Below are positions 4,970 through 62,850 of a stretch of DNA of 64,000 nt, in pieces (position 1 is the stretch's first letter; each line of letters starts with the position of its first letter). The stretch covers positions 2,604,001 through 2,668,000 of the forward strand of contig CM114271.1 in NCBI GenBank assembly GCA_050084515.1, given 5' to 3'. The stretch comes from Blasia pusilla (Eukaryota). Made by a program: the position numbers and the translations under genes. The notes under the pieces were generated by a model that searched no databases, was not told where the DNA came from, and saw nothing but the letters and a program-made list of their open reading frames with translations.

Positions 4970-5027
4970 GTGAGTCCAGGAACGATAGCCTGCGGATCTA
5001 GGATTTCGATAAGTCGTTGAGATCGAG

Positions 5028-5066
<39 letters not shown>

Positions 5067-29820: not shown

Positions 29821-30009
<189 letters not shown>

Positions 30010-40019: not shown

Positions 40020-40061
<42 letters not shown>

Positions 40062-42000: not shown

Positions 42001-42153
42001 GACCTATCTTCTTATACGAGGCGGGTCTTATTAAGTTGGAGAGCAGCAAGGCCACAACCCACTTAGGGGAGAGGGGGAAACCCCTAAATCTAACCTTACC
42101 AATAGAAGAAATGCCATTAGCAACGGTTAAAGAATCATGACAAGCAGTAGGAG

Positions 42154-45100
42154 TGTCGTGCGCCTACTCTCCTTGAACGTTAATCTTGTTTGTTGCGGAA
42201 GCGTGCGTTCAGTAGGTCACGCTCTCAACGCATCCAAACACGCACTTTGGTTAGCCGGGACTTGGATCAATCAGCGGGATTACTTTCCGAGCTCTCGTCT
42301 CGGACTCTCTCTTCAAGCTCAACCTTCCTAGTTTCACGGTTTCCAACACGGGCAAGTCTCGAAAGACTTGGGACATACTTACAGTCGGTTCGGGGAACTG
42401 AAAACGGCGTTTCGCGCCTAGCGGTTCCAACAGTCCGATGAACATCCAATGAGTTCCTCACCAAGACTTGTACGAAGTGAATCTCGGGTTGGAATCCAAG
42501 TGTGGCGTACAAAGTCCACTCCCTTGGATCAGGTTTGGGTTTCGGGTTTCCGCGCCAAACTCCCGTTTCATCCCATGCCTCTGAAACGCTGTTTGGCGCC
42601 CAAAGTGGGGTTTCGTTTCCCGAGACATCTCAGAGAAGGTACTCCCCTTGCTAGTACTTCTGGGGATCTCCGGGGCCCCTACATTTAGGAAAGACACCGG
42701 GCCTCATTGGCCCTCAACCCGATTGCTCTCTGAATCGTTTTCGGCCAATATCTCAGCCTGTACTTATGCGTTTGCTGAGATCTTTAGTGCGTTGGAAGCG
42801 TCTCAAGATCAGCTTTCCAACGCGCCCTTATTTGTCCCGAACGCATCTCGGAGCTCAACGTTATGGTCCTAAACACAGTCAGATTCTCCCAAACGCTAGC
42901 CGTGTTCCAAACTGGTTCTCACCTCTTTGGCAACCAACCTCCAAGACTCAACTCATCTCAAGTCTCGGCTCGCGTTTGGTCTAGGTTTCCTGGTCGCGAC
43001 CACTAACGCATGAAACGCACAACTCTGTTCCGCGTTTCGTCTCTTAGACTTTTCCAAGAGACTCTTCCAAACGCCTCTCCAAAGCGCAAACCTCGCGGCA
43101 TGAGTTCCTTTGAGTTCTGATGTTTCGCTTGGCGCGTATTTGGTGTTGTTTGGTTATGAGGGTCGCGACACTCACCCCTCCTTAGAAGGTTGATGTCCTC
43201 ATCAACGCAAACCTTATTGATGTTAAGTTCTGGGAAGCCAACCCCTTAACACAGAATCGCGTTCTGGTAGCTAACCCGCAATTCCTCTTTTTGGCTTAAG
43301 TCTTAGGTTGTCGCTTGCAGCACTTAGACTTATTAGCTTCTCTTTCTCACGAGCCTAGACTAGTTCTGCGGAACTAATCTAACTATCAAAATAAGCTCAC
43401 TAAGTGCGCAACCTAACACTTCACTCACTATTTGTAAACAACCACTTTGTCTACCTAGCCAACTCATTACTACTTTTGGGTCACTTGTACTCCACCTAGG
43501 CGCGTCACTAAGTTCAGTCATGAAACATGAATGAGATCACCACAAACCCCAAGACAGACTCATCTCCCTTCCGACGTTAGGGCGAGCCCAAATGCTAGTA
43601 CTTCAACACTTGGTCCTAATCTAGATGCCTTATCCGAATACAAGCTCTCACCTCAAATACTCATTGTTTGGTCTCCTTGACTTACATCCTAAGCATATGA
43701 AGAACTACTCATTGCCTTGCACAAACCAAACTCAAAATTACAATACAAGCATCGAATCTCCAAATCCATGTCTTCTTTATTGCAACAACTAAACCTTTCT
43801 AGTTACAACGGGTTATCGGCCCAAGCTTTCCGGTCACAAGTTATGTCCATTGCTTCACCATGTACTAACGCACGTGCCTTTCTTGCATCCATCTGAAGTC
43901 ACACAATGCTTCTTACGCATGTTCTAGATCCGCCTCCGCAATCCAAGTCGCCTCTTTCACATGATAGCCTTTCCACTTAACCAAGTACTAGTACTTGGTG
44001 GCCCTACGTCTGGAACGCAGAATAGTCTCAACCTCGAACTCTGGTTCCTCATTTTTGATGACCGGTTGTGGTCTCAACATCCTCCTTCGCTCCGGACGCA
44101 CATTGTCTTGAAGATACTTCTTCAATAATGACACATGGAAAGTCAGGTGAATCTTGAACTCGTTTGGCAACTCCAATGTGTACACATCCTCAAACGGCCT
44201 TGCCTTGATCACATACGGTCCAGCATACTTGGCTGACAATTTCGCGGACAATTCCTTCGGAAGAGTGAGATTCTTAACACTCAACCACACTTGTTCCCCA
44301 ACTTGGAAACTCACTTGGCGCCGACTTTTGTTAGCATGCTTTACGTACCTTAGTTGAGCCTTGGCGAGACTTTCTCTCGCTTCGCTCTGGTCGTTCTGCA
44401 TTTCCACTAACAAACATTCCGCCGTTGCTTGACGAGTGTGTGTCGATGTATTGCCCTTCGAAAAGAGCTAAGTCAAGAGGCCCTTCGGTTCTCTTTGATA
44501 CGCCAGAAGAAACGAAGATTCTCCGGTTGCAGAATGCTTAGTCGAGTTGTAACAATACTCAGCCATACTTAACCACTTGGCCCAATCTCTTTGGTCCGCA
44601 CTCACGTAATTCCATAAGTATTGGTTTACGATCGAGTTTAATTTTTCCGTTTGCCCATCCGTTTGAGGATGGAAGGCCGTACTAAAGCTGAGTTTGGTCT
44701 GGAACCTCATGAATAGATGTTTCCAAAAGGCACTGGTAAACTTTGGATCCCGATCGGACACAATGCTCCTAGGCAATCCGTGCGCACGCCACCAACCATC
44801 CAGGAATAGTCGGGGAAGTCGTGTAGGCCGTCGGACTCTCTCGTCGGCACAAACCTCCCCAACTTGCTAAACCGATCAACTATCACAAGTATAGCGTTGT
44901 ATCCCTCAGATTTTGGAAGACTCGTAATGAAATCCATGCTAATGCTTTGCAAGGGTCCCTCCGGGATTGGCAAAGGATGAAGTAAACCTTGTTTCTTCGC
45001 ATAAGACACGCGGTTTGCCTGGCGGAGTCACATGTTTTCACATATTGAGCAACATCTTCCTTCATGTTGGGCCGGAAGAACCTCTTAGAAAAAAAAAAAA

Positions 45101-48100
45101 AGCAAGAGTGGATTTCTCCCTTTGTGTCCCGCCAAAGGTCCATCATGACATTCCACAAACACCTTGGTCCATAGCTTGCCTTGGCCTACATAGATCTGCT
45201 CTGCTTAAACCTTAGCAAGCCGTGTCTCAAACTCAGATTGGCCACCTTCTCGCCCGCTTTAACTTCCCAAGGTACTCCTCGCTTGCTCATCCTTCATGTA
45301 TCCTTCACTTAATCCTTCTTTCCAGGTCTGTTTCATTAGGGAACATTGCTCTCAACACTTGTGTCGATGGCATGTGTTCATCCTGCGACTTAACGATCTG
45401 GAATGACATTATCTTTCCCGGCTTATGGATTAGCTCCACATTCATCAACGCCAAGGTATCATGCCACGAAGTTGTTTTTGCGCCACGCGATCCTGGGTCT
45501 CAAAATACTTGAGCGATATGTTATCGGTGAATACTCGAGTCTGTGAAGTCCCAAATAGTGACGCCACTTCCTCAAGCAATGAACCACCATAAAAACTCTT
45601 TCTCATGAGTAGGCCGTCTCCTTTCGTGTCGGTCAACTTCTTGCTTTCGTATGCTCTGGTCTCCCTTTTGCACCAACATTCTTGCAATCGCGAAATCACT
45701 AGCATCCGTGTGCACCTCGACGGTTGTTCAAACTCCGGAAGCTTGAGCGGTTCTGCGAGAGGATCTCTTTGACTCGATTGAACGCTTTATCCACTTCCTC
45801 GGTCCATGTAGTATTGGAAAACTTTGCGGTCCAATCCGTGAGAGGTTTCACTATGCCCGAAAAGTTCTTCACGTATGTCCGGTAAAACTGGACATCTCCA
45901 ATGAACCTTCTCATCCCCTTCACCGTGGAAGGCGGTTCCCATTCGGCAATCGCGCTCACCTTTTCCATGTCTGGACTCACTCCATCCGCACTAACCACAT
46001 GCCCCAAGAACTTGATCTTCGTCAAACCGAACTCACTCTCTTATCCGCATTCGCATACGACTTGTTCGCCTAAGTTTCTCAAACACCGTCTTCAAATGTC
46101 GAGCGTGCTCCTCTAGTGTCTTCGAATAGATGAGTATGTCATCTATATAGATGATCATAAACTCATCCGTCTCCTTGTGAAAGATGGAGTTCATCAAAGT
46201 GGTAAACGTCGGAGGCGCATTACAAAGACCGAAAGGCATTACTACAAACTCGAACGAACCGTATCTCGTCCCTGAGCAGTCTTCTCTACATCCGCCGGCA
46301 ATCCGAATCTGATAATATCCTGATTTCAGGTCAATCCGGCTGAAATACTTGGCACCCGACAATCGATCAAAGAGGTCATCCATCCTCGGTAGAGGATAGT
46401 TATTCCTTACCGTCACTTTATTCAGCGCCCGATAATCAACACAGAGTCTCAACTTCCCATCCTTCTTCTTTACAAAGAGGACGGGCGCCCCATAAGGTGA
46501 CTTGCTTGTTCGGATGTAACCCCTCTCTAGGAGTTCACCCAACTGTTTCTTCAACTCAGCAAGTTCCTCTTGATTCAACCTATATGGTGCCTTTGAAGGT
46601 GGTTGAGATCCTGGTATCACCTCAATCTTATGATCAACCGCCCTATGTGGTGGCAACTCAGTCGGAAGCTCCTTAGTCAACACATCTTCAAATTCTTTCA
46701 CAACTCTCTTGAGTGTTTCAGGGATCCCCCTTGAAGCTGAGTTCTGATCTCTGCGAAGCATCTGAGTGCGAAGCATCTGTATCAACGAGCAACATCACAT
46801 TGCGATTAGCAATCTTGGATCCTAGGTAAACCAAATTGGGCGTTCTCTTGGTGACTTGTAGAGATGTATCTAGATCTCCCTCCGATAAATGCTTAGCGGC
46901 AAACGCAATCATACTCGGTTTACTAACCTTGGGCCTAACACATTCCTTAGCCATATGCCCGGGTTCGCCACAATTGTAGCAAATCACTTTGGCATTCGCT
47001 GACTTCGTAAACGGCGGCCCCTTTGGCTTCGCGTTGAGTTCCACTCGTTTCGCCGCTGGGGCAAGAGACCCTCCATGGTCACGCTCACCCCCATTCCAAA
47101 CCCTCTTGGATGTCCCTTTGTTCTTCTGTAACTTAGAAAAACTTTTTGTCTCAAAGGGTTTCGGGTGTTGGACTTCATCGTCCCCAATCCGCTCGGCTAG
47201 TCTCAAGAGGTCCGCGCACGTCTCTGGGATGTGAGGCATACGAAAGAGAGCCTTCTTGGCACTCGGTTTGAGCCCACTTAGGAAGATCACCTTTTTAGTA
47301 TGTTCATCCGTGGAAAGTGCACTTATGAGCGCACTAAACTCTCGCACATAAGCGCCAAGTGATCCACTCGGCGCAACCTCACCACCTCCATGCCATCGCG
47401 GTACTCTGATATTCGGAGTGAATCGGTTCCCAATCAACTCCTTGAAATCTTCCCAACTCAACGTTTTCCCACGACCTAGATGTTCTTTGCGGTGAGCCGT
47501 CCACCAATGGAGAGCGTGATCCTTCGTAAACGTGACCGCTCTGATCACCTTGTCTTGTTCATCTGCTTTTGCGCTCGAAATAGAGTTCGAGTTCCGTTAG
47601 AAACTCGCTCACTTTCCGAACGCCCCATTCCTATGAATGGCGTTGGCAAATTAGTCTTACAAAGCTTCTTGCCGTAACTAGAGGCTCCATTTGACTTGAA
47701 TTCGATATCACCTTGCTCTGTTCAGCCATCTGGTCCGCCATCACCTTCATCAATCCCATCATTTGGGTATAAAAGGCCGGATCGTTTAAGTTTGGACCCA
47801 AAGGTCCCGCGGAAAGATTTTCGGTTGGAACATCCTCATGTCAGGACTCGGCACTTCGAGTCATAAATTCCACCTCCGGCTCTCGGTCCGTCATTGATTC
47901 GTCTCTTGGCTTTTTGCTTTGACTCGCGGTTTCCTCGATTCTTCGCCCTTGGTCGCCATTTTTCGTCGCCTTTTCTCAGATCTCCTCCTCGCCTCTTGCG
48001 TTCCTCCTCGGCGTCGCGGTCTTCCGGCTACCTTGAGTTCTCCCCAAACTTCCAGATCTTCAACGACCCCAAGTTCACGCTCATCAAGGAATTTCTCTGA

Positions 48101-49126
48101 TACCACGTGTCGTGCGCCTACTCTCCTTGAACGTTAATCTTGTTTTTTGCGGAAGCGTGCGTTCAGTAGGTCACGCTCTCAACGCATCCAAACACGCACT
48201 TTGGTTAGCCGGGACTTGGATCAATCAGCGGGATTACTTTCCGAGCTCTTGTCTCGGACTCTCTCTTCAAGCTCAACCTTCCTAGTTTCACGGTTTCCAA
48301 CACGGGCAAGTCTCGAAAGACTTGGGACAGACTTTCTGGTCGGTTCAGGAACCTGAAACGGCGTTTCGCGCCTAGCGGTTCCAACAGTCCGATGAACATC
48401 CAATGAGTTCCTCACCAAGACTGCACGAAGTGAATCTCGGGTTGGAATCCAAGTGTGGGCGTACAAAGTCCACTCCCTTGGATCAGGTTTGGGTTTGGGT
48501 TTCGCGCCAAACTCCCGTTTCATCCCATGCCTCAAACGCTATTTGTTTGGCGCCCAAAGTGGGTTTCGTTTCCGAGACATCTCAGAGAAGGTACTCCCCT
48601 TACTAGTACTTCTGGGGATCTCGGGGCCCCTACATTTAGGGAAAGACACCGGGCCCCTCCAATTGGCCCTCAACCCGATTGCTCTCTGAATCGTTTTCGG
48701 CCAATATCTCAGCCTGTACTTATGCGTTTGCTGAGATCTTTAGTGCGTTGGAAGCGTCTCAAGATCAGCTTTCCAACGCGCCCTTATTTGTCCCGAACGC
48801 ATCTCGGAGCTCAACGTTATGGGCCTAAACACAGTCAAATTCTCCCAAACGCTAGCCGTGTTCCAAACTGGTTCTCACCTCTTTGGCAACCAACCTCCAA
48901 GACTCAACTCATCTCAAGTCTCGGCTCGCGTTTGGTCTAGGTTTCCTGGTCGCGACCACTAACGCATGAAACGCACAACTCTGTTCCGCGTTTCGTCTCT
49001 TAGACTTTTCCAAGAGACTCTTCCAAACGCCTCTCCAAAGCGCAAACCTCGCGGCATGAGTTCCTTTGAGTTCTGATGTTTCGCTTGGCGCGTATTTGGT
49101 GTTGTTTGGTTATGAGGGTCGTGACA
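42154..49126 (-). mobile_element. Full-length Ty3/Gypsy chromovirus LTR retrotransposon (gag-PR-RT-RH-INT-chromodomain), frameshifted
   Basis: LTRs at 42154-43170 and 48108-49126 (TGTC...GACA) are near identical. TSD AGGAG at 42149-42153 and 49127-49131. PBS TGGTATCAGAG on the minus strand (48105-48095). PPT AAGGAGGGGTGAG (43183-43171). Motifs [47 protein letters not shown] and FEVETIL...YLVKWKGY. Confidence 0.97.
43912..47900 (-). pseudogene. gag-pol of the chromovirus, broken into many frames
   Basis: ORF pieces 46718-47548 (gag/PR), 46033-46785 (RT), 45699-46025, 44468-45009 (integrase) and 43988-44413 (GPY/F region and start of chromodomain). Confidence 0.9.
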
Positions 49127-51101
49127 AGGAGGGCCTCTAACAATCACGTTTCCCATAGCTTGAGCCCATTGTACATGCTCATTGGCTTGGGCACACTACA
49201 AAGTGTTGGACACTCGTTGTCAACAATATAAGAGTTGTCACGTCTCTTAGGATAGATCGGTGAGATCTAGTAGAGAGCCTTCGTGAGTAGCGGAGGACAG
49301 GCCCAGTAGGTCGAGGATGACCTGTTGAGTATGTGATCAACTTTCTATTTTTGGTAAGTGGCCCTTGACCTCCTACATGAGGTCAAGAGCCAAGGAGGTG
49401 ACTTGGGAGCATAGGTTACCATGGAGAGAGCTTGGGAGGAGGAAGGGGTATACCTCAAGGAGAGAGATTTAATCTTATTTTACAAAGAGAGAGTGAGAGA
49501 GCTTCTGTTTTTGCACGTTGGGGACCGTGTTCCCCGTTTAGCAGCTCACCGGAGCAAGGGCTGCTTTGATTGTTCTTTGCATTTGCCGATTTTTCGTGTG
49601 GAAGAGTGGCGCGCGGAAGCGTTGCCCAATTTCTGATAGGGATTGATTATGGGGGCAGGTTGCCCCATGCCGGTGCTCTCGGGAGCACCATGTAGCTTGC
49701 TGATTTGTATTTTTACAGGTTTTACATTTTTTTGAGGAGAAATCAGGGCGGAAGCGCAACCAAATTTTATGTAGGAGAAAGAGACATTGGGCTTCACGAC
49801 TGTCCCTGTCAGTTTTTACTCAAATGTTTGATTCCAAATATTTTTTATGATGTTGTAGATTTTGAAGTTTTGCACATTGTACAACAAACAATGCGCAATT
49901 TGAAGTTGCGAGCAAAAAGTTATGGTCAATCTTGCAAAACTTCCATTGCTAGGCGATTTTTAGGGTTAAATTGTTCAAACCCTAAACCAGCCGCCGCGCC
50001 AGCGGCAATTGTCTCCGTCATAGTCACCGTTAAGTTTCAACCATCACCGTCGATGCTCAACCGTCACCGTCACCGTCACCATCAACAGTCCGTCGTCACC
50101 ATTAATGGTCAACCGTCACCGTCAACGGTCCACCGTCCATCGTCGGTCGCTGCCGTCGCCTAGCGCTGCTCATAGCCACGTTCGGCCGTTGTCCACCCTT
50201 TGGTTTCTATTGCCGCCATTATGGAGTGGAGGGTCTTCCACGACCACCGTTGATTCTCTGACTTGCGCCGCCACCACGTACTTTGGTTTGGCCGCCACCG
50301 TCATCGCAGTTTCGTCATCAACCAGTGATGGTAGGTGACCTCGAGTTATGGTGTTTGAGTTTTTCATTTCATGTTTCTATGTTGTGATTGGTAGCTTCTC
50401 AACAACGATCGAGAACCGTGCCGTGACACCCATAGCCGCAACGCGCTGCCGATTGCCGCGTCGTGCCGCTCGTGGCCGCACCGCATTGTCTCGATCGCGG
50501 AGCCGCTCCTTCACTAAGGAGCAGAGCGTGTGAATTTTTGATTGAGTAGGGTATGCCGCCAAGTGCCGCACGCCATTCCTGAGTGCCGTGCCGTTTGTAG
50601 CCGCTCCGTGCCGCGAGTGCCGCACTGGACCATTGGACCTGCAACGCACATCGAGGAGGTTTGAGCACCGTCAATACGAGAGGAGTACGACTTGCTCATT
50701 GGAGGAGTTGTCTTTACGACCAAGTTGGGGTCGAGATTTGCAATTACCGAGGAGCGACATCAATATTATTGTCAGGTTACCCATTCTGGTCTCTTACCCT
50801 TCACGTATGAGGGATTTCCGAATATTGGGAAGTTATTTGGGATATTGGGTTTCGTGTTGATGCTAGGAGCATCGATGATGTATGGGTTTAGGGGACATAG
50901 ACTTGTGTGGGATGTCCAAAGTTGAGGATGGTTTGTTGATGAGATGATAGATAAGTGATTTTCCCCACCACGCTGCTTGTTGCCGCACAACACACGTCTT
51001 AGTGAGAGAGTGTAGATTGAGTGCCGCATGTTTAGTTTGAGTGATTGAGGGATTACTCGCGAGATTGAGAGTGATCGTGTGAGAGGGGCACAAGGGCCAT
51101 C

Positions 51102-53670
51102 ATGGCATCCTTTCGGGATTTTGAGAGGCGAGGTAGTGGACCTGAGAGTAGCTCAAGAGGGTTTACCCGGAGTGGTGCGAGGTTTCGAGGGTCTCCATGT
51201 GAAGGACCACCTCGATCTCCTTTTGTGTCATCTTCAAACGAGGGGGAGCGTGTAGAGGAGTGTGTTAGTGATCCACCGTACACATTGAGTGGTCGTTGGG
51301 CGTACGAGATGGACGACCGGGATAGAGGACCACGTAGGTTTTCGGATGCTATAGGCACTATAGAGCTACACGACTTCATTGCGGAGTTTAAGAGTTGGTG
51401 TGACTCACAACGGGCTAGGTATTGTAAAGAGTTCAACATGTTTACGACATGGAACGGTATGTTCTATTATTTAGAGGGGGCGCCCATGGACGATTACCAT
51501 GAGTTCTCCCACAGTTATGCCCAAGAGATTGAGGCATTGCGACTCTACTATGACCCACACTATGTGTCATAGACGGAGCCGTTCCCAGATGAGGAGGAGG
51601 AGTCAAGAGAGGTTATTTCCTCTTCCACTAGTGACATTTTAGGAGGGGTCTCTCTCACTGGAGCAGTTGCACCGTCTAGTCGGATTCGTCCCACGTTCAA
51701 CCTGTGGTTGAGTTCTTTGTTGAGTTGAGGGCAAGCTACCAGGAGGTACGGACGGAGAAGTTGCGGAGCATCCACAACTTCCAGAGGCGCCCGAGTGAGA
51801 GTTTGCTTGAGGCTTACACTCACTTGCGCCGGTTGATCAACGTCACTCAGGGGTGACAAAGGCTCAGGCTATCCAGTCATGGTACGCGATGTTGGACCGG
51901 ACCCTACAGACACGGGTACGGGAGGGGATGCTTCTTATGAACACCTCCCCTATATTGAGAGATGTTGTTAGGACTGTCAAGAACATTGAGCGCAATATGG
52001 AGGAGGAGAGCGTAGCCACCATGGGTTCTAGGCGAGAGCAGTCACGATTGTCTGCACCACATGTGCAGCAATGTGGACTTCGAGATAGGTCGAGTGTGGC
52101 ACCACGAGCTGAGGGAAGATACCGGGAGGGCGTGCCACAGAGACATGCGCCCTCATATGCGGCTTTGCAGCAGCCGCCTACTATTACTTGTTGGTCATGT
52201 GGTGGAGCCCATCATCAGCGCGATTGCACTCGTCAGGGTCACGGATGTATGCCTCAGCATGGAGGAGGAGATGTTGCTACACCAAGAGGTTATCAATGTG
52301 ACTATTGTCAGAGGTATGGTCATACACGCGCCAGGTGTTTCAGTTTACATCTTGAGTTACATGCGGACCAAGGGCTAGAGAGGGCACCAGAGCGAGTAGC
52401 CAGTCCGGGTGCGCTAGAGATCATGCACCAAGTGGTCTTGTTGGGGGACGAGGAGCTCGAGTTGCTCGACATGGTGGTGGAGCTGCTTATGGAGGAGGTA
52501 GAGTACAACCACCTAGACGCGCCGACAGAGACACCGGACGTGAGGCTGGGATGGCTGTTCAGATACAGCAGCTACATGAGCAAATTGCCGCTATGGCATT
52601 GAGGTTACTCGATGCCGGATCCGTAGAATCGACATCATATGGAGCAACCAGAGTTATGGAGGATCCTGGTTGGATGTGCGGGGTTGCCCAGATGGAGGCC
52701 GCCGCGGTTGTGACGCGTGGAGCAACCGCAAAGTTGGATCCACAGCGAGGGGAAGCCATGAAACACACTAGGCTTCCTCAGTCTTTCACGTTGTCCAAGG
52801 CGATGAGGACTCCATCCATGGGTCCTTATCAGAGTTCCTGGAGAGTTGGTGATGTTGTTAGTGTGCAGGCACGGAGAGCGATGGGAGAAGCAAGTGCGAC
52901 GACTCCTATTGTTGATGCTCATGAGGTGCATGTTTCGAGCACGTTGTTGGGGGCGGCCACTGTTGTGTACCGCACTCCTTTATTTTCTGCTTCCGATGTT
53001 ATGACGTTGGGGGGTACGTCGGCGAGGCTTTTCGGCTGGCCGCTTCACTATGTGAGCGCAGAGGTGGAGTTCCTGCATCATGTTCAGAGGTGATTGCAGA
53101 GGAGGTGATGGACCTGCCCTTGGAGCGAGTGATCGGCGCGTCCATGTCAGATTCATGGCAGGCTGTGGCTGCTAGGATGGCGGAGATGCCCGCTAGATCC
53201 GCGATAGAGCGTGCCATGGCTTCTCCTGGTGTTGTGTTGTTGGATAACTAGGGAGAGGTCTTCCACTTGGTGAGTCCCGGAGGTAGAGCTTTTAAGCCGC
53301 AGCGCGTCTTGTTGGATTTAGGAGCGCAACCCCTGATGTTGGGGAAAACGTCATTTAGAGGATTGGGCTTGACGAGAGTCAATGTGGAGCGTTGTCCATT
53401 CTGTGTACAGACATCCTTGGATGGCGCGAGTACCACACAGTATATCACCCGAGAGGAGTTCGTGGTGAGGATTCGCCCTGGACATCCTACAGATAAGTCG
53501 GTGGTGCGAGCCAAGGCGATAGTGATTGATGCAGAGTCCTACGACGTCTTAGTTGGTGGAGCAATGTTATACCCGATGGGGTTTTCCCTGGATTACTGGG
53601 AGGAGTCAGCGTCCTACACACCAGGATGGCAGTCAGATGATGGGCGCCTTAGCTCATTACACGTTTGATT
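51102..53670 (+). pseudogene. gag with two Cys/His knuckles and an aspartic protease (decayed)
   Basis: CWSCGGAHHQRDC and CDYCQRYGHTRARC lie in ORF 51853-52602. The protease RVLLDLGAQPLML...YDVLVG lies in ORF 53267-53668. Confidence 0.8.
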
Positions 53671-54027
53671 CACAAGTGCAATGATCGAGCGATGGCCAAG
53701 AGAGTGGCGACCTTAGCAACATTTAGCAGTGCCATCACTTGGCCTAGTGATTTGATTGAGGGACATGTCCATGCAGAAGATACCCCCGTTCGGGACATTT
53801 CTATGGAGAGGAGTGTTATGGTAGGCGCATCATTCCGTGGAGGAGAGGTGCGGTTGTGGGGCTCGACTGAGGAGCTTCGACGATTTGCAAATGAGCACGT
53901 GCAGACCGCGTGGAGCGAGATGTTTGCACCAAAGCGTGATGGGTCTGAGGAACCCGAGGTAGCAGGGAGTGCTACGCTGACACCCTTGGATACCACACCC
54001 ATTGTGTGGCGTATTCTGGAGGAGGAT

Positions 54028-54980
54028 ATTCATGTGTTAGATCTCTTTGGAGGGATAAGCACCGGGTTAGCTGTTGTTTTGCAAGCAGGAGTGCGACTGC
54101 ATCAGTACCTGTATGTGGAGAGTGATGATGTTGCAAGGCGCCTCTCACTACGACATGTGGCGCAGTTATGCCTACGTTTTCCCAACTTGTTGTCTGCATT
54201 CGCAGTACAGGGGTTCCAGAGTTCCCTACCGAGGGATATTTCGTTGCTGGGGGTGCAGGACTTGGAGCGGGTAGGGACCATTGATTTGGTCATTGCAGGT
54301 TGGCCATGTCAAGGTCAATCGAGTGCTGGACGAGGCATCGGGTTGGTTGACACTCGATCCATGTTATTTTGGGAGATGTTGAGGGTCTTGAGATATTTGC
54401 AGGAGCATCAGTCCCATTCTCCGACTTACATTCTGGAGAATGTACCGATCTTGGGCGATTCAAGGTCACGGGTGGTGACGAGTGCACATCAGGTGCGTGC
54501 CTAGATCGGCCTAGCATTAGTTTTGAATGCGGCGAGTGTGGGTTCTCGAGCACATTGCCCGCGTCTATGGTGGACAAACATGGTACCACACGAGGTGTTG
54601 CGGAGGGCGTATGCAAGAGTAGAGCACCCCTCCCACTTGTTAGTGGATTCCATTCAGGATCCGGGCATCGATCATAGGCAATAAGGCACGATGATCGACC
54701 ATCATTGACTGTGGTCAACAGGGTAGGCCGGCCACGAGCAACTTTTCCCACGTTTGTGAATTTTCCCGGTTCCTATGCATACAAGGAGGCCAATCTTGGC
54801 TTCGTTTGGGATGATCAGGTTCAGAGGTTGGTGGAGCCCAACGCCGACGAGAGAGAGTGGGCGATGGGATTTCCCACAAGAGTGATGGCACTACCGTCAG
54901 TGTCAGAGGCATCACGACGCCATGTCTTGGGTCACGCAATGGACCTGAACTGCTTGACATGGATCTTCAGCTTGGGAGTG
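54028..54980 (+). pseudogene. C5-cytosine DNA methyltransferase domain embedded in pol (one premature stop at 54502-54504, one frameshift at ~54665)
   Basis: Motifs occur in canonical order: I VLDLFGG, II YVE, III RDIS, IV DLVIAGWPCQG, V DTRSMLF, VI YILENV, VIII SRAH(C)PRLWWTN, IX EREWAMGF, X LGHAMD. Confidence 0.93.
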
Positions 54981-55319
54981 GCTGGAGCAACGTTGCATGA
55001 GATTGCGACACATCACAGCGGTTGCGTTGGTGAGCCCCATGCCTACCGAGACGGTGGAGGCAGTGGCTGGGGGCGAGACTCGAGGAGATCGACACACCAA
55101 GGGAGATCAGGAGAGACACCCTTGGACTTCTTGGGATGTTTTGCAGGTACGCTAGGAGATGATAGCCACAGCGTCGAGCGTGGTTTAGGGCAATTCATGT
55201 GGAGGAGATCAGAGTTTGCAGTTGGTTGCAGGAGAGCGGCCAAGTGTTGGTGTTCGAGATAGGGTTGCACCATAGCAACCATCGATACCCGCGTCGGAGA
55301 GTCCTACCGCAGTCACGAT

Positions 55320-58240
55320 GGAGACTTGGGAGCCAGATATGGGCCCTAAGTTTATAGGAGAAGAGCGGCACCGGATACATCAGTTCCTTAGGAGTTATAG
55401 AAGCTGCTTTGCATTTAGCATGGAGTATTTGGGTACTCTGAAGGGATCATGGATCCACATTGAGTTGTCGAGTGATACGCCAATCTTCCAACAATCCTAC
55501 AGGTATAGTGATATGGAGAGGGCTCTGATTCAGAGTAGAAGCCAGGACTTGGTTGGAGCATGACGAGTGGAGATGTCGCATGGGGAGTATGCATCTGCCA
55601 TTGTCATGCATGCCAAGAAGGATGTGCATGGCAACTGGATGGATAGGCGGATGTGTGGGGATTATCGGCTTATCAATCGGCGGACGAAGTCTGATAGGTA
55701 TTCCAAGCCCACTCCAGAGGAGATCTTTGATGCGATTGGTCACCCAAAGGTCTTTAGTTCATTGGATTTGTGAGCCGGATACCATTAGCTGCCTATCAGA
55801 TTGGAGCACAAGCAAAAGACGGCATTTTGGGGCATCGATCCTCACGGGAAGGATTGTTTATACCAGTGGCCGTTCTTGCCATTTGGGTTAAAGAATGCCC
55901 CGGCTGAGTTTCAGAGGGTCATGGATAGGATCTTGGCAGGTCAGGATTTTGCTAGGTGTTACAATGATGACATCGTAGTCTTTAGTGCCACAGTTGAAGA
56001 GCATGAGCGACATCTAGAGGAGGTGTTTCGACGATTGCAGTTACATGGGCTGAAGCTACATCCAAGAAAGTGTAAGTTCTTCTACGACCAGATTGAGTAC
56101 TTGGGTCATACGATATACCCATGTGGCCTTGGTGTTCAGCAGACAAAGGTAGAGGCTATTTCACGCATTCCCCGCCCTACAGATGTGAGCCGCGTTCGTG
56201 CATTCATGGGATTGGCGAACTTCTATCGGCGGTACGTCAAGCAATTCAGTTTGATTGCGAAGCCACCGACCTTGCTGACCAAGATGGATCATGAGTGGCA
56301 CTGGGGGGATGAGCAGGAGCAAGCATTTCAGCTGCTCAAGGACAGATTGACGTCTGCGCCCATCTTGAGGAGACCGATCAGGGGGGGTTCCTTTCCAATT
56401 GCACATAGATTGGAGCATGTTGGGGCTTGGAGTGGCGCTCACCCAACATGATGATGAGGGTAGAGAGTTCGTGATGGCTTATGCTAGCCGTTCGAACAAC
56501 GTTGCAGAGGCCAAGTATAGCTCGTATGAGGATGAGTGTTTGGCTATGATGTGGGCTGTCGCACATTTTAGGTGTTACTTATTCGGAAATCCCTTTACCA
56601 TCATCACTGATTATCAACCACTAAATTGGTTGATGGAGTCCGAAAAGCTTACACGGAAGCTTGCAAGATGGGCTCTGTTGCTACAGGAGTACGATTTTTA
56701 GGTGGTACATCGACCAGGGATGGTCAACTAGGATGCAGATGGGCTAAGTTGTAACCCATGCCCGAGTGAGCGAGGTGAGACTGGAGCTTGATGGCATGGA
56801 GAGAGTGATGAGGAGTTAGTGCCAGGATGGCACGCGTCAACCTATTTAGGCTTGTTGGCTATGGAGAGCCAAAGTGTGGAGACTTTGATAGCGAGGTCTG
56901 ATGGAGAGTCCTTGGATCCCAAGGCCAATGAGGAGACGACATGTGGCCGAGATATTCATGATGATGGAGTAGTCTTGGAGTATCTGCGTACTGGCAGCGT
57001 TGCGATTACAATGGGTGCTAGAGAGCGGGATTGGGTCCTATAGCGGGCTAAACGGTTCCGCTGGGAGGGGACACATGTGTTGCAAGTGTGGGAGAATGAT
57101 AGAGTGCGTGTAGTGCCTCATCCTTTGCACAGAGCACATTTGGTGCATCATGCCCACAAGGAGTTTGGTCATTTTGGAGTGAAGCAGACATATAGCTTGC
57201 TCCAGATTCAATATTGGTATCGAGGCATGCAGAGTGACGTTTAGCAGTTTGTTGTCAGATGCATGGTGTGTGATTGAGTCTAAGCATCGTTCAATGCTCT
57301 AACTCCACATTTGCATCCACTTCTGATCATGGGTTTAGGTTATAGATGGAGTTTGGATTTTGCAGGACCTTTGCCTTTGACGGAGCACCATAGTGGTTAT
57401 GTATTGGTGATGGTCGAGCACTTCTCAAAGTGGATAGAGTTGGTTGCATTGCCTGACAAAGCGAGTGAAGGAGTAGCGTATGCCTTCCTAGATCGAGTGC
57501 TGAGTCATTACGGCGCACCAACTGAGGTGTTGACAGACCAGGGTACAGAGTTTCGCGGAGAGTTTCAGGCCTTATATGATTAGGCACTGATCGACCACCG
57601 CACTACTTCGCGAGATCATCCTGAGTCGGATGGACTAGCGGAGTGGGTTGTGCAGACGGTGAAGAGAGGACTACGCAAGTATGGCTTGAAGAGAGGTCAT
57701 CTAGGAGATTGGGACCTTCAGTTTCCGTGGTTGGCGATGGGATACAGATTCAGCAGGCAGACATCCTTAGCGTCTTTCTCACCGTACTTGTTGCTTTATG
57801 GCCGTGAGCCAGATTTACCTACGGCCATTCGTTGAGATACTGGTGAGGTGTTGAACCTTGATGACCCTGATGTATGGATGCAAGCATGTTCTGAGAGGGT
57901 TGAGTTGTTTCGAAGAGTCATGCCCATGGCGTTTGAGAACTTGGCGATTGCGCAACATCGGGATACGTTGAGGTATGCGACTATTCGGGGAGGTGGTTAT
58001 CGACCTCCTATCCGGAGGTTTCATCAAGGAGACTATGTCTACTTGCAGCACACGGCATCCACGACGTTGGATGTGACTACAAGGCACACCATCTTGAGAG
58101 TGCGTGAGGTTTTGCCATATGGTGTTCTCTTATTAGAGGGACGCGATGGTATGGTTTGGAAGGACCATGTGCGTAACTATGCGCCATGTCATCTTCCGAA
58201 CATTGATGGTACAATTGATCCGAGCTTAGCAATAGTTCCT
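55320..58240 (+). pseudogene. Reverse transcriptase, RNase H and DDE integrase of the DNMT-carrying element (stops and frameshifts)
   Basis: RT: RRMCGDYR, LPFGLKNAPAEFQR, CYNDDIVVFS. RNase H: DWS...AYASR...ECLAMMWAV...TDYQPL. Integrase: WSLDFAGP...LTDQGTEF. Confidence 0.92.
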
Positions 58241-58249
58241 CTAGGCTTG

Positions 58250-58393
58250 CGGTGTATGTTTTGTGGTTCCGCCCGTGGTGCAGCTACTATGCTAGTATGT
58301 GATGGATGTTCGAGAGGATGGCATATGGCATGTTTGACGCCATCTCTCACTAGGATTCCTCAGGGACGATGGATGTGTCCCAAATGTACATAG
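58250..58393 (+). other. PHD finger (C4HC3) at the integrase C-terminus
   Basis: RCMFCGSARGAATMLVCDGCSRGWHMACLTPSLTRIPQGRWMCPKCT*, in frame with the integrase tail (ORF 57848-58393). Confidence 0.93.
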
Positions 58394-60074
58394 AGTAGGT
58401 AGTTCTACATTTCGACTTGTGTCTTTGACATGGATGACAAGAAGTCGACTAACGATAGGGCCACATGAGCACCCGATCTTCTTGCTCTTAGCGTCCAAGA
58501 GATGTATATCATGGTAGGTAGGGATAGATGGCTATCTGGAATTAGAGGGACCTAACCACCAGCTAAGGGGGCGATTGGAGATATTTTGGTACTTCTTGTC
58601 TTGTTGTTTGGATGTCATGAGTTAGTAGGGGATCGTGCGTGTTTGTGTGTGTGTTCAGTGACAGCAATTTATGTTGTGTAGCGATGTGTATGCGCACGAC
58701 AGTTGTCACGTCTCTTAGGATAGATCGGTGAGATCTAGTAGAGTGTCTTCATGAGTACAGACTGAGTAGGTCGAGCATGACCTGCTTAGGCCGCGGGAAA
58801 CTTGAGATAGCAGGTTTCCCCTTCGTTTCGGCTCATTTGGAGCCGTATTGAGGAACTTACTATTTTAGGTAAGTACCATTTTGAGTATGTGATCAAGTTT
58901 CTATTTTTGGTAAGTGGCCCTTGACCTCCTACATCAGGTCAAGAGCCAAGGAGGTGACTTGGGAGCATAGGTTACCATGGAGAGAGCTTGGGAGAGGGGA
59001 GGGGTATACCTCAAGGAGAGAGAGCTTGAGAGCTCATTCTCTCTTTGTTGAACTTCTTGGCATAAGGCGGCGGAGCTATGGTCCCTTGCCTTGTGAGTGT
59101 AACCCAAGCCTCTCATTAGGAGAATGGGTTTGGTTTGTCATAAGAGAGAGTGCACACCTTTGAGAGCTATGGTGTGAGATGGTGTAGAGAGAGATTGGAT
59201 CTCACTTTATTGGTGATATTTTGGTACTTCTTGTCTCATTGTTTGGATGCGATGAGTTAGCATGGGATCATGCATGTTTTTGTGTGTGTTTGGTGACAGC
59301 AATGTAAGTTGTGTAGCGATGTGTATGCGCACGACAGAGTACACTAGCTCAAGATAACCCATTTCTCAAGTGGAGAAGATGTGCACAATTAATAAAAAAA
59401 GCATCAAACCTCTCACCCGTAAGCTCATGAATTTCAATAACTAATGGGACAAAATTATATTCTTTGCAAAGACAACTATAATGTAAAGTCCTCTTCCATG
59501 CCTCTGTCGGCGATGTTCCTTATATCTCCCTCATGAAATCATATGTGCCCAAATTGACTCCCATGTAAAATATGTAAATACAACATAAGTTACCATCACG
59601 TTAGCCTCTCGTGGCATGTATATGTCATGTATTTCTTGAGTGAAAAAGATGGGTGAACTCGGCAAGGAAAACATCAACCGATTCAAACCTCTCACCAAGA
59701 GCCCCATAATCTCAATAGCCCTCGCACCTATTCATCCTCGGGTTAAAGGGTTAGACGTGGGTTATGTTTGAAGAAGGGCTCGTGCAAAAAAGGCAACATC
59801 TGAGGGGACTCGAACTTGGGACGTACACCTTCTTAGTGATTGTACCATCCACTCCACTTGAGTTTCATGCATGAAAGGCATGGAATTAATAAAACTCTTA
59901 ACAGTTATCCAAAATAGAATATGTGGCTTCAAGATCTTGACCTCGAGTTAACTAATCCGAGGATGAATAGGCTGAAGGTCAATAGCTAATTTTCACGAAT
60001 AGTTGAGTCTATGGCACCCACACTAGCGGGGGATCCGGGAAGCAAGTCATGATCGCGGGTCCAAGGAGGAAATA

Positions 60075-60538
60075 TGTCACGTCTTTTAGGATAGATCGAC
60101 GAGATCTAGTAGATCGCCCTCGAGGATAGTGGAGGATAGCCTTAGGAGGTCGAGGATGATCTACTAAGGCCACGGTAACCTGAGAGAGAAGGTTTCCCCT
60201 TTCCCTTCATTTGAAGCCATATAGAGAAACCTTACTATTTCGCGTAAGTTTCCGTTTTGAACATAGTTGACTTTATAATTTGGGAAGTGGCCCTTGACCT
60301 TCTACAACATGTCAAGAGCCAATGAGGTGACCTGCAAGCATATGTTATCAGAAAGAGAACCTCCAAGCATAGGTTATTGTAGAGAGAGTTTGGAAGAGGG
60401 AAGGGGTATACCCAAAGAGAAAGGGTTTGGGAGCTCATTCTCTCTTTGTTGAACCTCTTGGCATAAGGCGTCGGAGCTATGGTCCTCCTTGACTTGTGTG
60501 TGAAACCCAAGCCTCTAATTAGGAGAGTGGGTTTGGTT

Positions 60539-60607
<69 letters not shown>

Positions 60608-62095: not shown

Positions 62096-62151
62096 AACCA
62101 CTGCAGTTGAGAAGGAAGAGGCTAAGATCATGCCAGGCAGGCTGGCTGACT

Positions 62152-62850
62152 TGGCAACCCCAATGGGGTGGCTCAAAGCTCCTCTAACAACCCATTTTAC
62201 GGTTGGAGAAGACTATGGCAACCCTAGTAGGGCGTGTCAAAGCTCTGATTTTACCACTATAGAATGTTCTGGCAACCGTACTAGGGTGGCTCAAAGCTCA
62301 TATAGCAACCGATTTTACGGTTGGAGGAAACTCTCTCAACCCCAATAGGCTATCTCAAAGCTCCTCTAACAATCAATTTTACGGCTAAAGGAAACTCTAG
62401 CAACCCTACTAGGGCAGTTCAAAGCTCCTCTAACAATGGATTTTGCCGTTGGAGAAAACTCTCGAAACCCTAGTAGGGGGCGTCAAACCTCCTCTACCAA
62501 CCAATTTTACGACTGGAGAAAAATATGGCAACCGTAAGGCATCTCAGAGCTCCTCCAACAACCAATTTTATGGTTGAAGAAAACTCTGGCAACCCTTGTA
62601 GGGTGACTCAAAGCTCTTCTAACAACCAAGTTTACAATTGGAGAAAAAATTGGCAACCCTAGTAGGGTGGCTCAAAGCTCCACTTTTGACAACTAATTTT
62701 ATGGCTGGAGAAAAATATTGCAACCCTGGTAAGGCAGCTCAAAGCTCCTCCAACAACCAATTTTGTGGTGGAAGCAAACTCTGGCAACCCTTGTAGGGTG
62801 ACTCAAAGCTCTTCTTCTAACAACCAAGTTTACAATTGGAGAAAAATTAT
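62152..62850. repeat. Minisatellite, ~11 units of ~64 bp with internal palindromes
   Basis: Consensus TGGCAACCCTAGTAGGGTGGCTCAAAGCTCCTCTAACAACCAATTTTACGGTTGGAGAAAACTC, with units starting at ~62152, 62216, 62270, 62334, 62398, 62462, 62526, 62587, 62651, 62718 and 62781. Confidence 0.92.

Follow-up and report, generated by a model that had tools for sequence, protein, structure and literature searches.

A stretch of 64,000 nucleotides from Blasia pusilla (the window) contains a Ty3/gypsy-like element of 10.1 kb (49236-59336, + strand), inside which lies a C5-cytosine DNA methyltransferase (DNMT) domain predicted to be of the DNMT3 type. We hold it very likely that the element is identified correctly and belongs to the Gypsy-DNMT3 family, and likely that the explanation offered here, in which the window carries a dead copy of this family, holds as a whole. 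Through this family, a type of element known only a little, and from algae, extends to land plants.

Directly outside the TG...CA ends of the element lies a target duplication of 4 bp, GAGT, and a second full element, L022, is flanked in the same position by AAGG on both sides; the evidence on ends and duplications comes from these two full elements (n = 2). Such ends with a short target-site duplication are typical of Ty3/gypsy elements, as is the order of the domains: gag, protease (PR), reverse transcriptase (RT), RNase H and, last, a DDE integrase (IN), with the DNMT between PR and RT and a PHD finger after IN as extras (Table 1). A CCHC knuckle is visible in the window translation of gag (CWSCGGAHHQRDC), and the gag counterpart in the metagenome locus L001 matched zf-CCHC at 1.2e-7. 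The protease stretch RVLLDLGAQP lies at 53303-53332; the protease region of the window gave no Pfam match, and its counterpart in the open relative L026 matched Asp_protease_2 at E 2e-4, which is under the curated cut-off. The integrase matched Integrase_H2C2 (2e-8) and rve (1.3e-11). An earlier note on this DNA had spoken of a gypsy retrotransposon, which holds for the domain order but not for the repeats. Instead of two like LTRs, both the window element and L022 have terminal repeats in the order A-coding-B-A-B, with A alone on the left and B-A-B on the right. B1 is directly followed by a 2-base spacer, GT (58702-58703), and the series B1-spacer-A2 reads as if the element's right end had been joined to its left. 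A1 is shorter than A2 and beyond 49467 does not match 59024-59208; the extension of A2 to 59208 was judged from a third A-like copy (60075-60553) that covers 58704-59150. The purine-rich tract before B1 is a possible plus-strand primer site. An identity as a DIRS-like element was rejected, as this would call for a tyrosine recombinase and no target duplication, whereas rve, Integrase_H2C2 and the 4-bp duplication are present.

Table 1. Features of the element in the window (positions are those of the whole window).
Feature	Position	Strand	Remarks
Target-site duplication, left (GAGT)	49232..49235	+	Identical to 59337-59340
Terminal repeat A1, begins TGTCACG	49236..49467	+	Versus A2 (58704-59023): 96.5% over 143 nt, 85.9% over 92 nt
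gag with CCHC knuckle, several frames	51159..52602	+	tblastn with Marchantia, Sphagnum and L001 ORF1 proteins
Aspartic protease region	52961..53668	+	Collinear with PR region of relatives; stop at 53249 inside the aligned stretch
DNMT3-type C5-cytosine methyltransferase domain (predicted type), broken	53704..54983	+	PF00145 2.3e-10, motifs, PDB searches
Conserved in-frame stop, readthrough-type context TAG CAA CCA	55273..55281	+	Between ORF1 and ORF2
Reverse transcriptase	55282..56400	+	RVT_1 1.9e-22; 74% identity to L001 ORF2; stops at 55561, 55771, 55786
RNase H	56369..56701	+	RT_RNaseH 9.2e-34
Integrase	57044..57835	+	H2C2 57044-57244, DDE core 57284-57583, C-terminal part to 57835; several stops
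PHD finger, C-terminus of integrase ORF	58253..58387	+	PF00628 1.2e-11
Purine-rich tract before B1	58544..58573	+	Nearly the same 30 bases ahead of B1 in L022
Repeat B1, ends ...GACA	58574..58701	+	89% identity to B2 over 129 nt
Repeat A2, begins TGTCACG	58704..59208	+	Match to A1
Repeat B2, right end of element, ends ...GACA	59209..59336	+	
Target-site duplication, right (GAGT)	59337..59340	+	

The methyltransferase domain between protease and RT, which the earlier note had reported with its motifs in normal order, was recovered by profile search and by alignment. The frame 53653-54504 matched Pfam PF00145 at E 2.3e-10 with 40.9 bits (cut-off 22), the match spanning only profile positions 49-120 of 324, and the open relative L026 reached 51.1 bits. 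Both in the window translation and in an alignment with 19 relatives the motifs follow the normal order I, IV, VI, VIII, IX, X. Motifs I (LDLFGG, 54037-54054), IV (GWPCQG, 54298-54315) and VI (ENV, 54436-54444) are followed by motif VIII (GSRAHCPRLWWTN) and, in another frame, by motifs IX/X (EREWAMGFP...LGHAMD, up to 54944). The match is far above chance expectation: the domain is matched by 2417 library representatives at E <= 1e-3 and by 458 at E <= 1e-10. No intron interrupts the methylase region, which shares its strand with PR upstream and with RT, RNase H, rve and PHD downstream.

The window copy itself is long dead. All three lesions described previously were seen again: a TAG at 54502-54504, a frame change at about 54663-54681 and an R-to-C change in motif VIII at 54556-54558, where the AHRxR of relatives gives way to Cys in the window (HCPR vs HRxR). 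The domain further holds a stop at 54675, an R-to-W change in motif IX (54858-54860) and an excess of 1 base at 54984/5, and the loss of 1 base after 53704 puts PR and DNMT into different frames in this copy. With a stop and a frame change interrupting the domain, the window copy cannot make the enzyme; over its whole length it has no fewer than 15 in-frame stops and 7 changes of frame.

The PDB ranking and the predicted fold both place the methylase with the DNMT3 type. When PDB sequences were searched with the family profile, DNMT3A/B/C scored 2e-23 to 2e-21, ahead of DRM (4.5e-13 to 1.2e-9), M.HhaI (6.5e-9) and DNMT2 (2.9e-6), and no DNMT1 or chromomethylase chain was among the 57 PDB chains listed. 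A sequence search of the PDB likewise ranked DNMT3A/B/C highest. A natural open relative was modelled with AlphaFold (pLDDT 83.5) and compared using Foldseek, and the matches listed down to rank 50 were DNMT3A/B/C chains only, with a target TM of 0.79-0.84 for the catalytic-domain chains. DRM was rejected, since DRM enzymes have motifs VI-X ahead of I-V. The catalytic domain of animal DNMT3A/3B is the best match by profile (2e-23) and by fold; the two share an unrearranged motif order I-X, and the element family has AHRxRxxW-N in motif VIII, as in DNMT3A. However, identity to the animal enzymes is only about 20%, and the element DNMT lacks PWWP and ADD and is instead fused to Gag-PR, while the H3-tail reader, a PHD finger, is on a separate protein of the element.

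Motifs I, IV, VI, VIII, IX and X are kept among relatives that are only 30-65% identical. The earlier note had proposed a search for intact PR-DNMT-RT copies and a dN/dS estimate. Open relatives such as L026 were found, and the dN/dS of the DNMT was 0.12 for L026 versus L027 (dS 0.26) and 0.19 for L001 versus L008 (dS 1.59); selection and open frames were thus seen in relatives from sources other than the genome of the window.

Relatives with the collinear arrangement gag-PR-DNMT-RT-RNaseH-IN-PHD were found in Marchantia, Calypogeia, Sphagnum, Closterium, which is a close algal relative of land plants, and metagenome contigs. In the latter, the order PR/DNMT-RT is kept wherever the domains are present in 32 of 32 loci (L001-L032), which include many near-duplicates and amount to about 5 independent lineages. 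In two Marchantia proteins, a single chain runs from DNMT through RVT_1 to RNase H. Marchantia polymorpha gene models make up 16 of the 28 homologue matches, so the family is already in public protein sets and is less unheard-of in land-plant LTR lineages than the earlier note had assumed. The land-plant host named there was confirmed: a CorA-like gene in the window (38332-39633, - strand) is 85% identical to Marchantia paleacea, which identifies the host, as judged from this gene, as a liverwort. Identity of the same gene to Sphagnum is 63-64% and to a lycophyte 61-62%.

The family is very abundant and transcribed in this liverwort. In a genomic run labelled as the same species (X15), 164,214 of 12,434,590 sampled reads (1.3%) fell on 49500-58560 at a mapping threshold of at least 80% likeness to the window element. 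Summed depth was about 1720-2400 in the DNMT bins versus about 2500-3150 in the RT. Depth thus holds over the methylase, which argues that family members carry the domain and argues against copies without it and against a domain with ends of its own. Three RNA runs gave 6481, 6321 and 6809 reads on the element, and cover was mostly one-stranded: in the bin 53742-54044, first mates on the - versus the + strand stood at 80.2 v 6.4, 73 v 2.4 and 92.3 v 2.8. Provided that the libraries follow the usual stranded protocol, as we assume here, the family RNA is sense. Reads at 80-95% likeness derive from other copies, and the mapping does not discriminate which copies are expressed or whether these are open.

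These data bear on the possibility that the window copy captured a host DNMT3 fragment as a one-off event, or that a separate element is nested between PR and RT. The only hint in this direction is the difference in frame between PR and DNMT, but this is a lesion that most copies do not share, as 899 of 1547 genomic reads carry one more base, an A, after 53704. Read depth is continuous over PR, DNMT and RT, the same order recurs in the collinear relatives and in the 32 metagenome loci, and no repeats or duplication were found flanking the methylase domain. We therefore rejected a one-off capture or nested insertion, which we regard as extremely improbable. The domain is integral to the element, in line with the earlier note, which had itself named absence of the domain from other members and nesting with own ends as grounds for doubt.

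The same note had placed the methylase inside pol. The domain is part of the element, but it closes the first reading frame rather than simply lying within pol: an in-frame stop separates DNMT from RT in the window and, at the matching alignment position, in 28 of 32 related loci, which makes the methylase the C-terminus of a Gag-PR-DNMT ORF1, with RT-RNaseH-IN-PHD as ORF2. The open relative L026 has an ORF1 of 1369 aa (Asp protease, DNMT) and an ORF2 of 1047 aa (RVT_1, RNase H, integrase, PHD) that share a frame, and the stop that parts them is the only one in 7.2 kb. Gene models of ORF1 that end at the stop were found in Marchantia (5), in Calypogeia (1) and in 3 unnamed cases. In the window, the stop and its context are those of the type I readthrough motif of the tobamovirus type, UAG followed by CAR YYA, a described readthrough motif according to the relevant passages of PMC3542737. 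The exact fit is found only in the window and L001 (TAG CAA CCA) and in L026 and L027 (TAG CAG TTA).

Alternatively, the stop may be no readthrough site, with ORF2 being made via splicing, reinitiation or a subgenomic RNA, or it may be a shared product of decay. The 28 stops comprise 20 TAG and 8 TAA, 27 of them followed by CAR YYN, and most other loci read CAA CCC after the stop, with C rather than A as the sixth base; both the TAA stops and the CCC speak against readthrough, and RNA-only joints do occur elsewhere in the element, for instance from 55440 to 56513. Yet no RNA joint across the stop was among the 15 joints listed (there were 107 further joints), and ORF2 is in frame with ORF1 in L001, L026, L027 and L008, which supports readthrough. 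Shared decay is difficult to reconcile with the position of the stop, which coincides in the alignment between lineages with a DNMT identity of only 44-65%, L026 among them. We consider these alternatives rather unlikely and favor a leaky stop.

How does this element relate to known systems? The passages of PMC5890265 on KnitGypsy-Dnmt3 of Klebsormidium nitens describe a Gypsy element with DIRS-like repeats and a DNMT in pol (Ka/Ks < 0.2), which is methylated and mostly silent in K. nitens. Compared with these passages, both elements are of the gypsy-type LTR class with an intron-free, non-rearranged DNMT3-type domain in the coding region, and both families have A-coding-B-A-B repeats and a DNMT under purifying selection. 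The combination of gypsy-type domains with DIRS-like A-coding-B-A-B repeats that marks the Gypsy-DNMT3 lineage in figure legends 1e and 4c of PMC5890265 is present here as well. The window family differs in having a land-plant (liverwort) host, where it takes up 1.3% of sampled reads, versus the 'fewer copies' stated for KnitGypsy-Dnmt3 in that text. No K. nitens sequence was among the named homologue matches. By repeat layout and DNMT3 type it is plausible that the window element represents a land-plant branch of the Gypsy-DNMT3 elements first described in Klebsormidium, and the link to charophyte elements suggested in the earlier note is plausible to the same degree. SymbioDIRS-Dnmt3 of Symbiodinium, which methylates CG de novo in yeast according to the same source, shares with the window family a DNMT3-type domain in the polyprotein, A-coding-B-A-B repeats and two coexisting domain orders. 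It is a DIRS element with a tyrosine recombinase, however, whereas a DDE integrase, TG...CA ends and a target duplication characterize the window element.

The second domain order, RT-RNaseH-DNMT-IN-PHD, forms a sister architecture in Scenedesmus and many metagenome contigs, and one branch of the DNMT tree parts the two orders (SH-aLRT 97). This split, together with the recurrent capture of DNMTs by retroelements described in parts of PMC5890265 and bioRxiv 10.64898/2026.05.21.726589, would fit a gain of DNMT3 by the liverwort and moss elements independently of KnitGypsy-Dnmt3, or their arrival by horizontal transfer. Against this, the odd repeats are shared with the published charophyte element along with the gypsy-type domains, Closterium has the same PR/DNMT-RT order, and the DNMT tree unites the window with Calypogeia and Marchantia (SH-aLRT 99), matching the placement of the host. 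Convergence or transfer therefore seems quite unlikely to us, and common descent with the charophyte elements is the reading we retain.

The PHD finger was found in 14 of 30 long relatives. Its nearest solved counterparts are those of CHD4, PHF12, DPF2, KDM5A/B, KAT6A, PHF21A, AIRE, ATXR5 and UHRF1, which mostly read the H3 tail unmodified at K4, rather than H3K9me. Chromoviruses likewise have a gypsy-type pol whose integrase bears a histone-tail reader at its C-terminus; their reader is a chromodomain, which steers insertion, whereas that of the window element is a PHD finger, and to our knowledge chromoviruses carry no methylase. The EpiLTRs of Cymbomonas and Euglena are LTR elements that, like the window element, have a DNA methyltransferase and a chromatin reader. 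As described in the sections of bioRxiv 10.64898/2026.05.21.726589 on these elements, they possess an adenine methylase and a chromodomain along with a DNMT whose sister is DNMT4, and the Cymbomonas DNMT is attached to pol at its 3' end. The window element instead combines a DNMT3-type domain with a PHD finger and lacks an adenine methylase.

We propose that working copies encode a methylase that is, on balance, probably catalytically active. Its place ahead of the leaky stop would give it a Gag-like level of production, with RT-IN-PHD being produced by occasional readthrough. The enzyme may then methylate newly made DNA of its own element de novo, at integration or close to it, and the PHD finger of the integrase would steer insertion to chromatin with the H3 tail unmodified at K4. 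As a result, a copy would arrive pre-methylated, either sufficiently quiet for the host to tolerate it or bearing the marks of host DNA. Among the putative roles, self-methylation of new copies is the most likely, although as the role under selection we advance it only tentatively, at somewhat less than an even chance. CpG observed/expected is 0.76 in the element versus 0.66 in the window at large; being no lower than that of the window, it is uninformative on which enzyme methylates the element.

The methylase might instead serve something other than methylation of its own DNA, by acting on host or rival-transposon DNA or on RNA, or as a non-catalytic DNA-binding or oligomerising module like DNMT3L. 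Bulk production from ORF1 alongside Gag and PR would suit a structural or RNA-directed role, and the only published assay of the charophyte enzyme reported in the passages of PMC5890265, carried out in yeast, detected no methylation, a result that its authors call inconclusive. On the other hand, nearly all relatives preserve the catalytic Cys in motif IV, the ENV and the motif VIII RxR, and the best fold match is DNA-bound DNMT3A/B. DNMT3L is not known to have kept these three features, and DNMT2, a tRNA enzyme, scores far lower (2.9e-6 vs 2e-23). We judge such roles fairly unlikely and prefer methylation of the element's own DNA.

A wider reading, which we think unlikely to hold in full, is that an old gypsy-type lineage, present throughout the green plants, is equipped with two epigenetic tools, namely a methylase of the DNMT3 type and a PHD finger of the H3K4-unmodified-reading kind. 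Split over two element proteins, this pair would recreate the logic of animal DNMT3A/3L, which is to read H3K4me0 and then methylate. The liverwort methylase would have moved into ORF1 before the leaky stop and so into Gag-like amounts, in a family that makes up more than 1% of the genome and is still transcribed. If the proposal is true, the DNMT3 encoded by these transposons would make a real contribution to de novo methylation in the cells of liverworts, and fresh copies would land in silent chromatin with their methylation already in place.

Stop-to-stop frames on the + strand, read from about 51.1 to 58.4 kb of the window, gave a retrotransposon domain series that runs from gag to a C-terminal PHD finger and includes a C5 cytosine methyltransferase (DNMT). 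The DNMT motifs I, IV, VI, VIII and IX/X were all located by translation and alignment and stand in the normal order, and the methylase frame scores above the PF00145 cut-off. The DNMT-bearing gypsy element of the window is thus confirmed as observed.

Features of the DNMT-bearing element in the window (A1, B1, A2 and B2, terminal repeat units)
Feature	Position	Strand	Evidence or sequence
A1	49236-49467		self-comparison
gag with CCHC knuckle (first in series)		+	translation
Protease-like stretch	53303-53332	+	RVLLDLGAQP, translation
C5 cytosine methyltransferase	53704-54983	+	PF00145, E 2.3e-10, 40.9 bits (cut-off 22)
DNMT motif I	54037-54054		LDLFGG
DNMT motif IV	54298-54315		GWPCQG
DNMT motif VI	54436-54444		ENV
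DNMT motif VIII	Cys at 54556-54558		GSRAHCPRLWWTN
DNMT motif IX/X	up to 54944		EREWAMGFP...LGHAMD
RVT_1		+	Pfam 1.9e-22
RT_RNaseH		+	Pfam 9.2e-34
Integrase_H2C2		+	Pfam 2e-8
rve		+	Pfam 1.3e-11
C-terminal PHD finger	58253-58387	+	Pfam 1.2e-11
B1	58574-58701, then two bases GT		self-comparison
A2	58704-59208		self-comparison
B2	59209-59336		self-comparison

The earlier note had called this copy dead because of a TAG within the methylase, a frameshift and an arginine-to-cysteine change in motif VIII. All three defects are real (TAG at 54502-54504, frame change near 54663-54681, and the Cys codon of motif VIII), and the decay exceeds them, with stops and frame changes along the coding part. Measured against nearly open relatives, the window copy carries in-frame stops at 53249, 54502 and 54675 in the protease and DNMT regions, at 55561, 55771, 55786, 56699, 56729 and 56789 further 3', and lastly at 57041, 57242, 57275, 57281, 57581 and 57833, together with at least seven frame changes.

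To which type the methylase belongs was assessed by profile ranking against the PDB and by fold search. A single-sequence search of the PDB returned DNMT3A, 3C and 3B chains first (5.8e-7 to 3e-5), followed by DRM and then M.HhaI. With a profile of 15 family sequences DNMT3A/B/C scored 2e-23 to 2e-21, compared to 4.5e-13 for tobacco DRM, 1.2e-9 for DRM2, 6.5e-9 for HhaI and 2.9e-6 for DNMT2, and none of the 57 matches listed was a chain named as DNMT1 or chromomethylase. An AlphaFold model was made for the natural open frame of a related locus (L001:3195-4508) with an alignment of 26 rows. It reached a mean pLDDT of 83.5, mostly above 90 for residues 10-350. Only DNMT3A, 3B and 3C chains were among the Foldseek matches in the PDB listed to rank 50, and the model fitted DNMT3 catalytic-domain chains with a target TM of 0.79-0.84 at about 20% identity. 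Because its motifs keep the unrearranged order, the domain is not a DRM.

Relatives of only 30-65% identity retain the catalytic motifs. Over the whole methylase a dN/dS ratio was obtained for five of ten pairs of loci; dS was saturated in two pairs. The ratio was 0.12 for L026 and L027 (dN 0.031, dS 0.261) and 0.19 for L001 and L008 (dN 0.295, dS 1.586), while the pairs with dS near saturation gave 0.175 (L008 and L026; dN 0.507, dS 2.890) and 0.249 (L008 and L027; dN 0.510, dS 2.049). Protease ratios ranged from 0.13 to 0.31 in the three of six pairs that yielded one, and RT pairs gave none owing to saturated dS or stops in the compared stretches. For KnitGypsy-Dnmt3, the element of Klebsormidium nitens, a Ka/Ks below 0.2 is published (PMC5890265, excerpt).

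That the DNMT is the element's own coding part, as the earlier note proposed, holds; its placement inside pol needs amending. L026, an open relative, has a single frame (976-8226) with one stop only, at 5083-5085, which divides it into an ORF1 of 1369 aa with aspartic protease and DNMT and an ORF2 of 1047 aa with RVT_1, RNase H, integrase and PHD. An in-frame stop lies at the matching aligned place both in the window, as TAG at 55273-55275, and in 28 of 32 related loci from metagenome contigs (TAG in 20, TAA in 8), many of which are near-duplicates that represent about five independent lineages. The stretch with the stop is missing from the remaining loci (L010, L014, L018 and L020). Gene models of Marchantia (P0005, P0006, P0007, P0008 and P0018), Calypogeia (P0003) and unnamed organisms (P0010, P0021 and P0024) terminate at this stop. 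The methylase therefore belongs to ORF1, ahead of a conserved stop.

The sequence 3' of the stop is CAA CCN or CAG TTA in 27 of the 28 loci, L028 having TAG TAG CCA. The contexts in the window and L001 (TAG CAA CCA) and in L026 and L027 (TAG CAG TTA) fit UAG CAR YYA, the readthrough motif of the tobamovirus type (PMC3542737, excerpt). Judged by its sequence context, the conserved stop is probably a site of programmed readthrough. Most product would then be Gag-PR-DNMT, with RT-RNaseH-IN-PHD made in minor amount.

The PHD finger occupies the integrase C-terminus, where chromoviruses instead carry a chromodomain that steers insertion. Its nearest solved counterparts are the PHDs of CHD4, PHF12, DPF2, KDM5A and KDM5B (PHD1), KAT6A, PHF21A, AIRE, ATXR5 and UHRF1. 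Most of these read the H3 tail unmodified at K4 or R2, and for this reason we infer that the finger may be an integrase-targeting module, which would steer the integrase towards chromatin without H3K4 methylation. Among the literature matches listed, nothing relevant was found on PHD fingers of gypsy integrases.

Self-comparison of the window revealed four repeat units at the element ends rather than the two of an LTR element. A1 and A2 are 96.5% identical over 143 nt and 85.9% over 92 nt, B1 and B2 89% over 129 nt. Owing to the arrangement of the repeats, B1-GT-A2 reads as the right end of the element fused to its left end. A purine-rich 30-mer lies immediately 5' of B1. The element starts with TGTCACG and ends with GACA, and GAGT stands immediately outside each terminus. 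The DDE integrase and the 4-bp duplication show that insertion is of the gypsy kind. The same layout was found in the second full element on which it was checked, L022 from a metagenome contig (A1 at 1679-2017, B1, two bases, A2, and B2 ending at 10805), which also has TG...CA ends, an AAGG duplication and a nearly identical 30-mer 5' of B1. In L008, A1 and A2 are visible before the end of the locus cuts the element off. The ends of the window element are thus not ordinary LTRs, which amends the earlier reading. Their layout, A-coding-B-A-B, is the one that de Mendoza et al. (PMC5890265, excerpt) give for SymbioDIRS-Dnmt3 from Symbiodinium. Inspection by eye of the sequence 3' of A1 gave no convincing tRNA match for a primer-binding site. 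Another A-like repeat, the third, lies at 60075-60553, 740 bases 3' of the element, and is 76-86% alike to 58704-59150; it continues into a (CT)n tract (60541-60604), has no adjoining coding part and may be left over from a different member of the family.

From a genomic run with the same species label, about 1% was mapped to 49500-58560 at 80% likeness, and 164,214 of 12,434,590 reads (1.3%) were placed. The leader and gag had a summed depth of about 1000-2200, the methylase of 1720-2400, RT of 2500-3150 and IN-PHD of 2800-3800, so most copies contain the methylase. Only 78 placed reads were at least 99% alike to the window copy and 120,758 were below 90%; the family is therefore old and diverse. 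Differences in the reads comprised C-to-T at 626 and G-to-A at 611 places versus A-to-G at 323 and T-to-C at 297, an excess of about twofold. Relative to the window, 899 of 1547 genomic reads have one extra base after 53704, which brings PR and DNMT into a common frame in those copies. CpG observed/expected, at 0.76 in the element versus 0.66 elsewhere in the window, is not informative as a mark of methylation.

In three raw-read RNA runs with the same species label, 6481, 6321 and 6809 reads fell on the element, covering all of it including the methylase. First mates were overwhelmingly on the - strand, which indicates sense transcripts of other family members if the libraries are of the usual stranded type. 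Three joints (51007-51061, 55440-56513 and 56197-56229, skipping 53, 1072 and 31 bases) occurred in two to three RNA runs each and were absent from the genomic reads of the 1% DNA sample; they may reflect splicing inside the element or expressed deleted copies missed by that sample.

A word-based search for longer proteins gave 28 matches of 32-58% identity: 16 gene models of Marchantia polymorpha, one protein each of Calypogeia fissa and Sphagnum fallax, two of Closterium and eight unnamed. Aligned back to the window, they are collinear with the element from gag through PHD, and in two Marchantia models DNMT is followed by RVT_1 and then RNase H within a single chain. With the DNMT domain as query, an exhaustive search reached 2417 representatives at E <= 1e-3, of which 458 have E <= 1e-10. 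Pfam scanning of 30 long representatives among them detected RT_RNaseH in 24, Integrase_H2C2 in 23, rve in 22, DNA_methylase in 21, RVT_1 in 20 and PHD in 14. A further search by profile, again for longer proteins, contributed just two weak Tetraselmis matches and no protein from Klebsormidium, its candidate list being crowded. Cluster look-up of 30 proteins named an organism for five (Scenedesmus one, Closterium four; these include P0164 as well as the representative of the P0136 cluster and its member P0329), Klebsormidium not being among the names.

When pieces of the window were mapped onto 61 relatives, two domain orders emerged. The order of the window (PR-DNMT, or DNMT ahead of RT) was found in 14, from Marchantia, Calypogeia, Sphagnum, Closterium and some unnamed sources. 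RT-RNaseH-DNMT-IN(-PHD) was found in 44, such as P0042, P0049, P0181, a Scenedesmus sp. 'pol' and many metagenome contigs, and three were assignable to neither class. In an unrooted tree of 38 element DNMTs, from which L026 was left out, a single branch (SH-aLRT 97) splits the two orders, and the window falls in a clade of seven rows (SH-aLRT 99) with Calypogeia, Marchantia, L001 and L008.

The window also holds host genes. A CorA-like magnesium-transporter gene lies on the - strand at 37757-39633, with Pfam CorA on the exon next to 38332-39633, and an NF-YA (CBFB_NFYA) exon on the + strand at 8808-9293. The CorA-like stretch 38332-39633 is 85% identical to Marchantia paleacea (best), 63-64% to Sphagnum and 61-62% to a lycophyte; on these identities, the host is a liverwort other than M. 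paleacea. Just upstream of the DNMT-bearing element, an ordinary Ty3/gypsy element without methylase occupies 42153-49126 on the - strand (gag, CCHC, RVT_1, SH3_Tf2-1). Its 1.0-kb LTRs (42153-43170 and 48107-49126) are 96.8% alike, a further LTR copy (82% alike) lies at 32750-33744, and the right LTR stops 105 bases short of the target duplication of the methylase element. A tandem array of nine copies of an approximately 64-base unit (62-94% identity) spans 62150-62850, and long (GA)n/(CT)n microsatellites recur at 29824-30006, 40022-40081 and 60541-60604.

DNMT-bearing elements have been published for Symbiodinium and Klebsormidium nitens (PMC5890265, excerpt). SymbioDIRS enzymes performed de novo CG methylation in yeast; activity of the Klebsormidium domain was not seen there, a result its authors call 'inconclusive' (PMC5890265, excerpt). 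In the excerpted texts, PMC12344493 and bioRxiv 10.64898/2026.05.21.726589 cite only that work for 'streptophytes'. In Marchantia, transposons are reported to be up-regulated in Mpmet, a host methyltransferase mutant (bioRxiv 10.1101/363937, excerpt). The literature searched names no DNMT-bearing retrotransposon for any land plant, Marchantia, other liverworts and mosses included. Its main texts also do not mention the six Marchantia gene ids that were queried; the supplementary trees of PMC5890265 and PMC12344493 may show such elements. The window element is a land-plant, high-copy, transcribed representative of the known Gypsy-DNMT3 elements. With low confidence, we favour a role of the enzyme in methylating new copies of its own element.

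All 16 Marchantia gene models from the word-based search belong to the element family, which matters for annotation. The UniRef name of one of them, P0007 of Marchantia polymorpha, begins 'DNA (cytosine-5', so ORF1 products of the element may pass for host methyltransferases in gene-family surveys. The element provides concrete handles, namely a methylase 5' of a conserved, putatively leaky stop, a PHD on the integrase and a non-LTR layout with target duplication. These data extend methylase-bearing retrotransposons from dinoflagellates and one charophyte alga to liverworts and a moss. As the group of hosts of this high-copy, transcribed element includes Marchantia polymorpha, for which genetic tools and methylome methods exist, what a transposon gains from carrying the enzyme that would normally silence it becomes testable.
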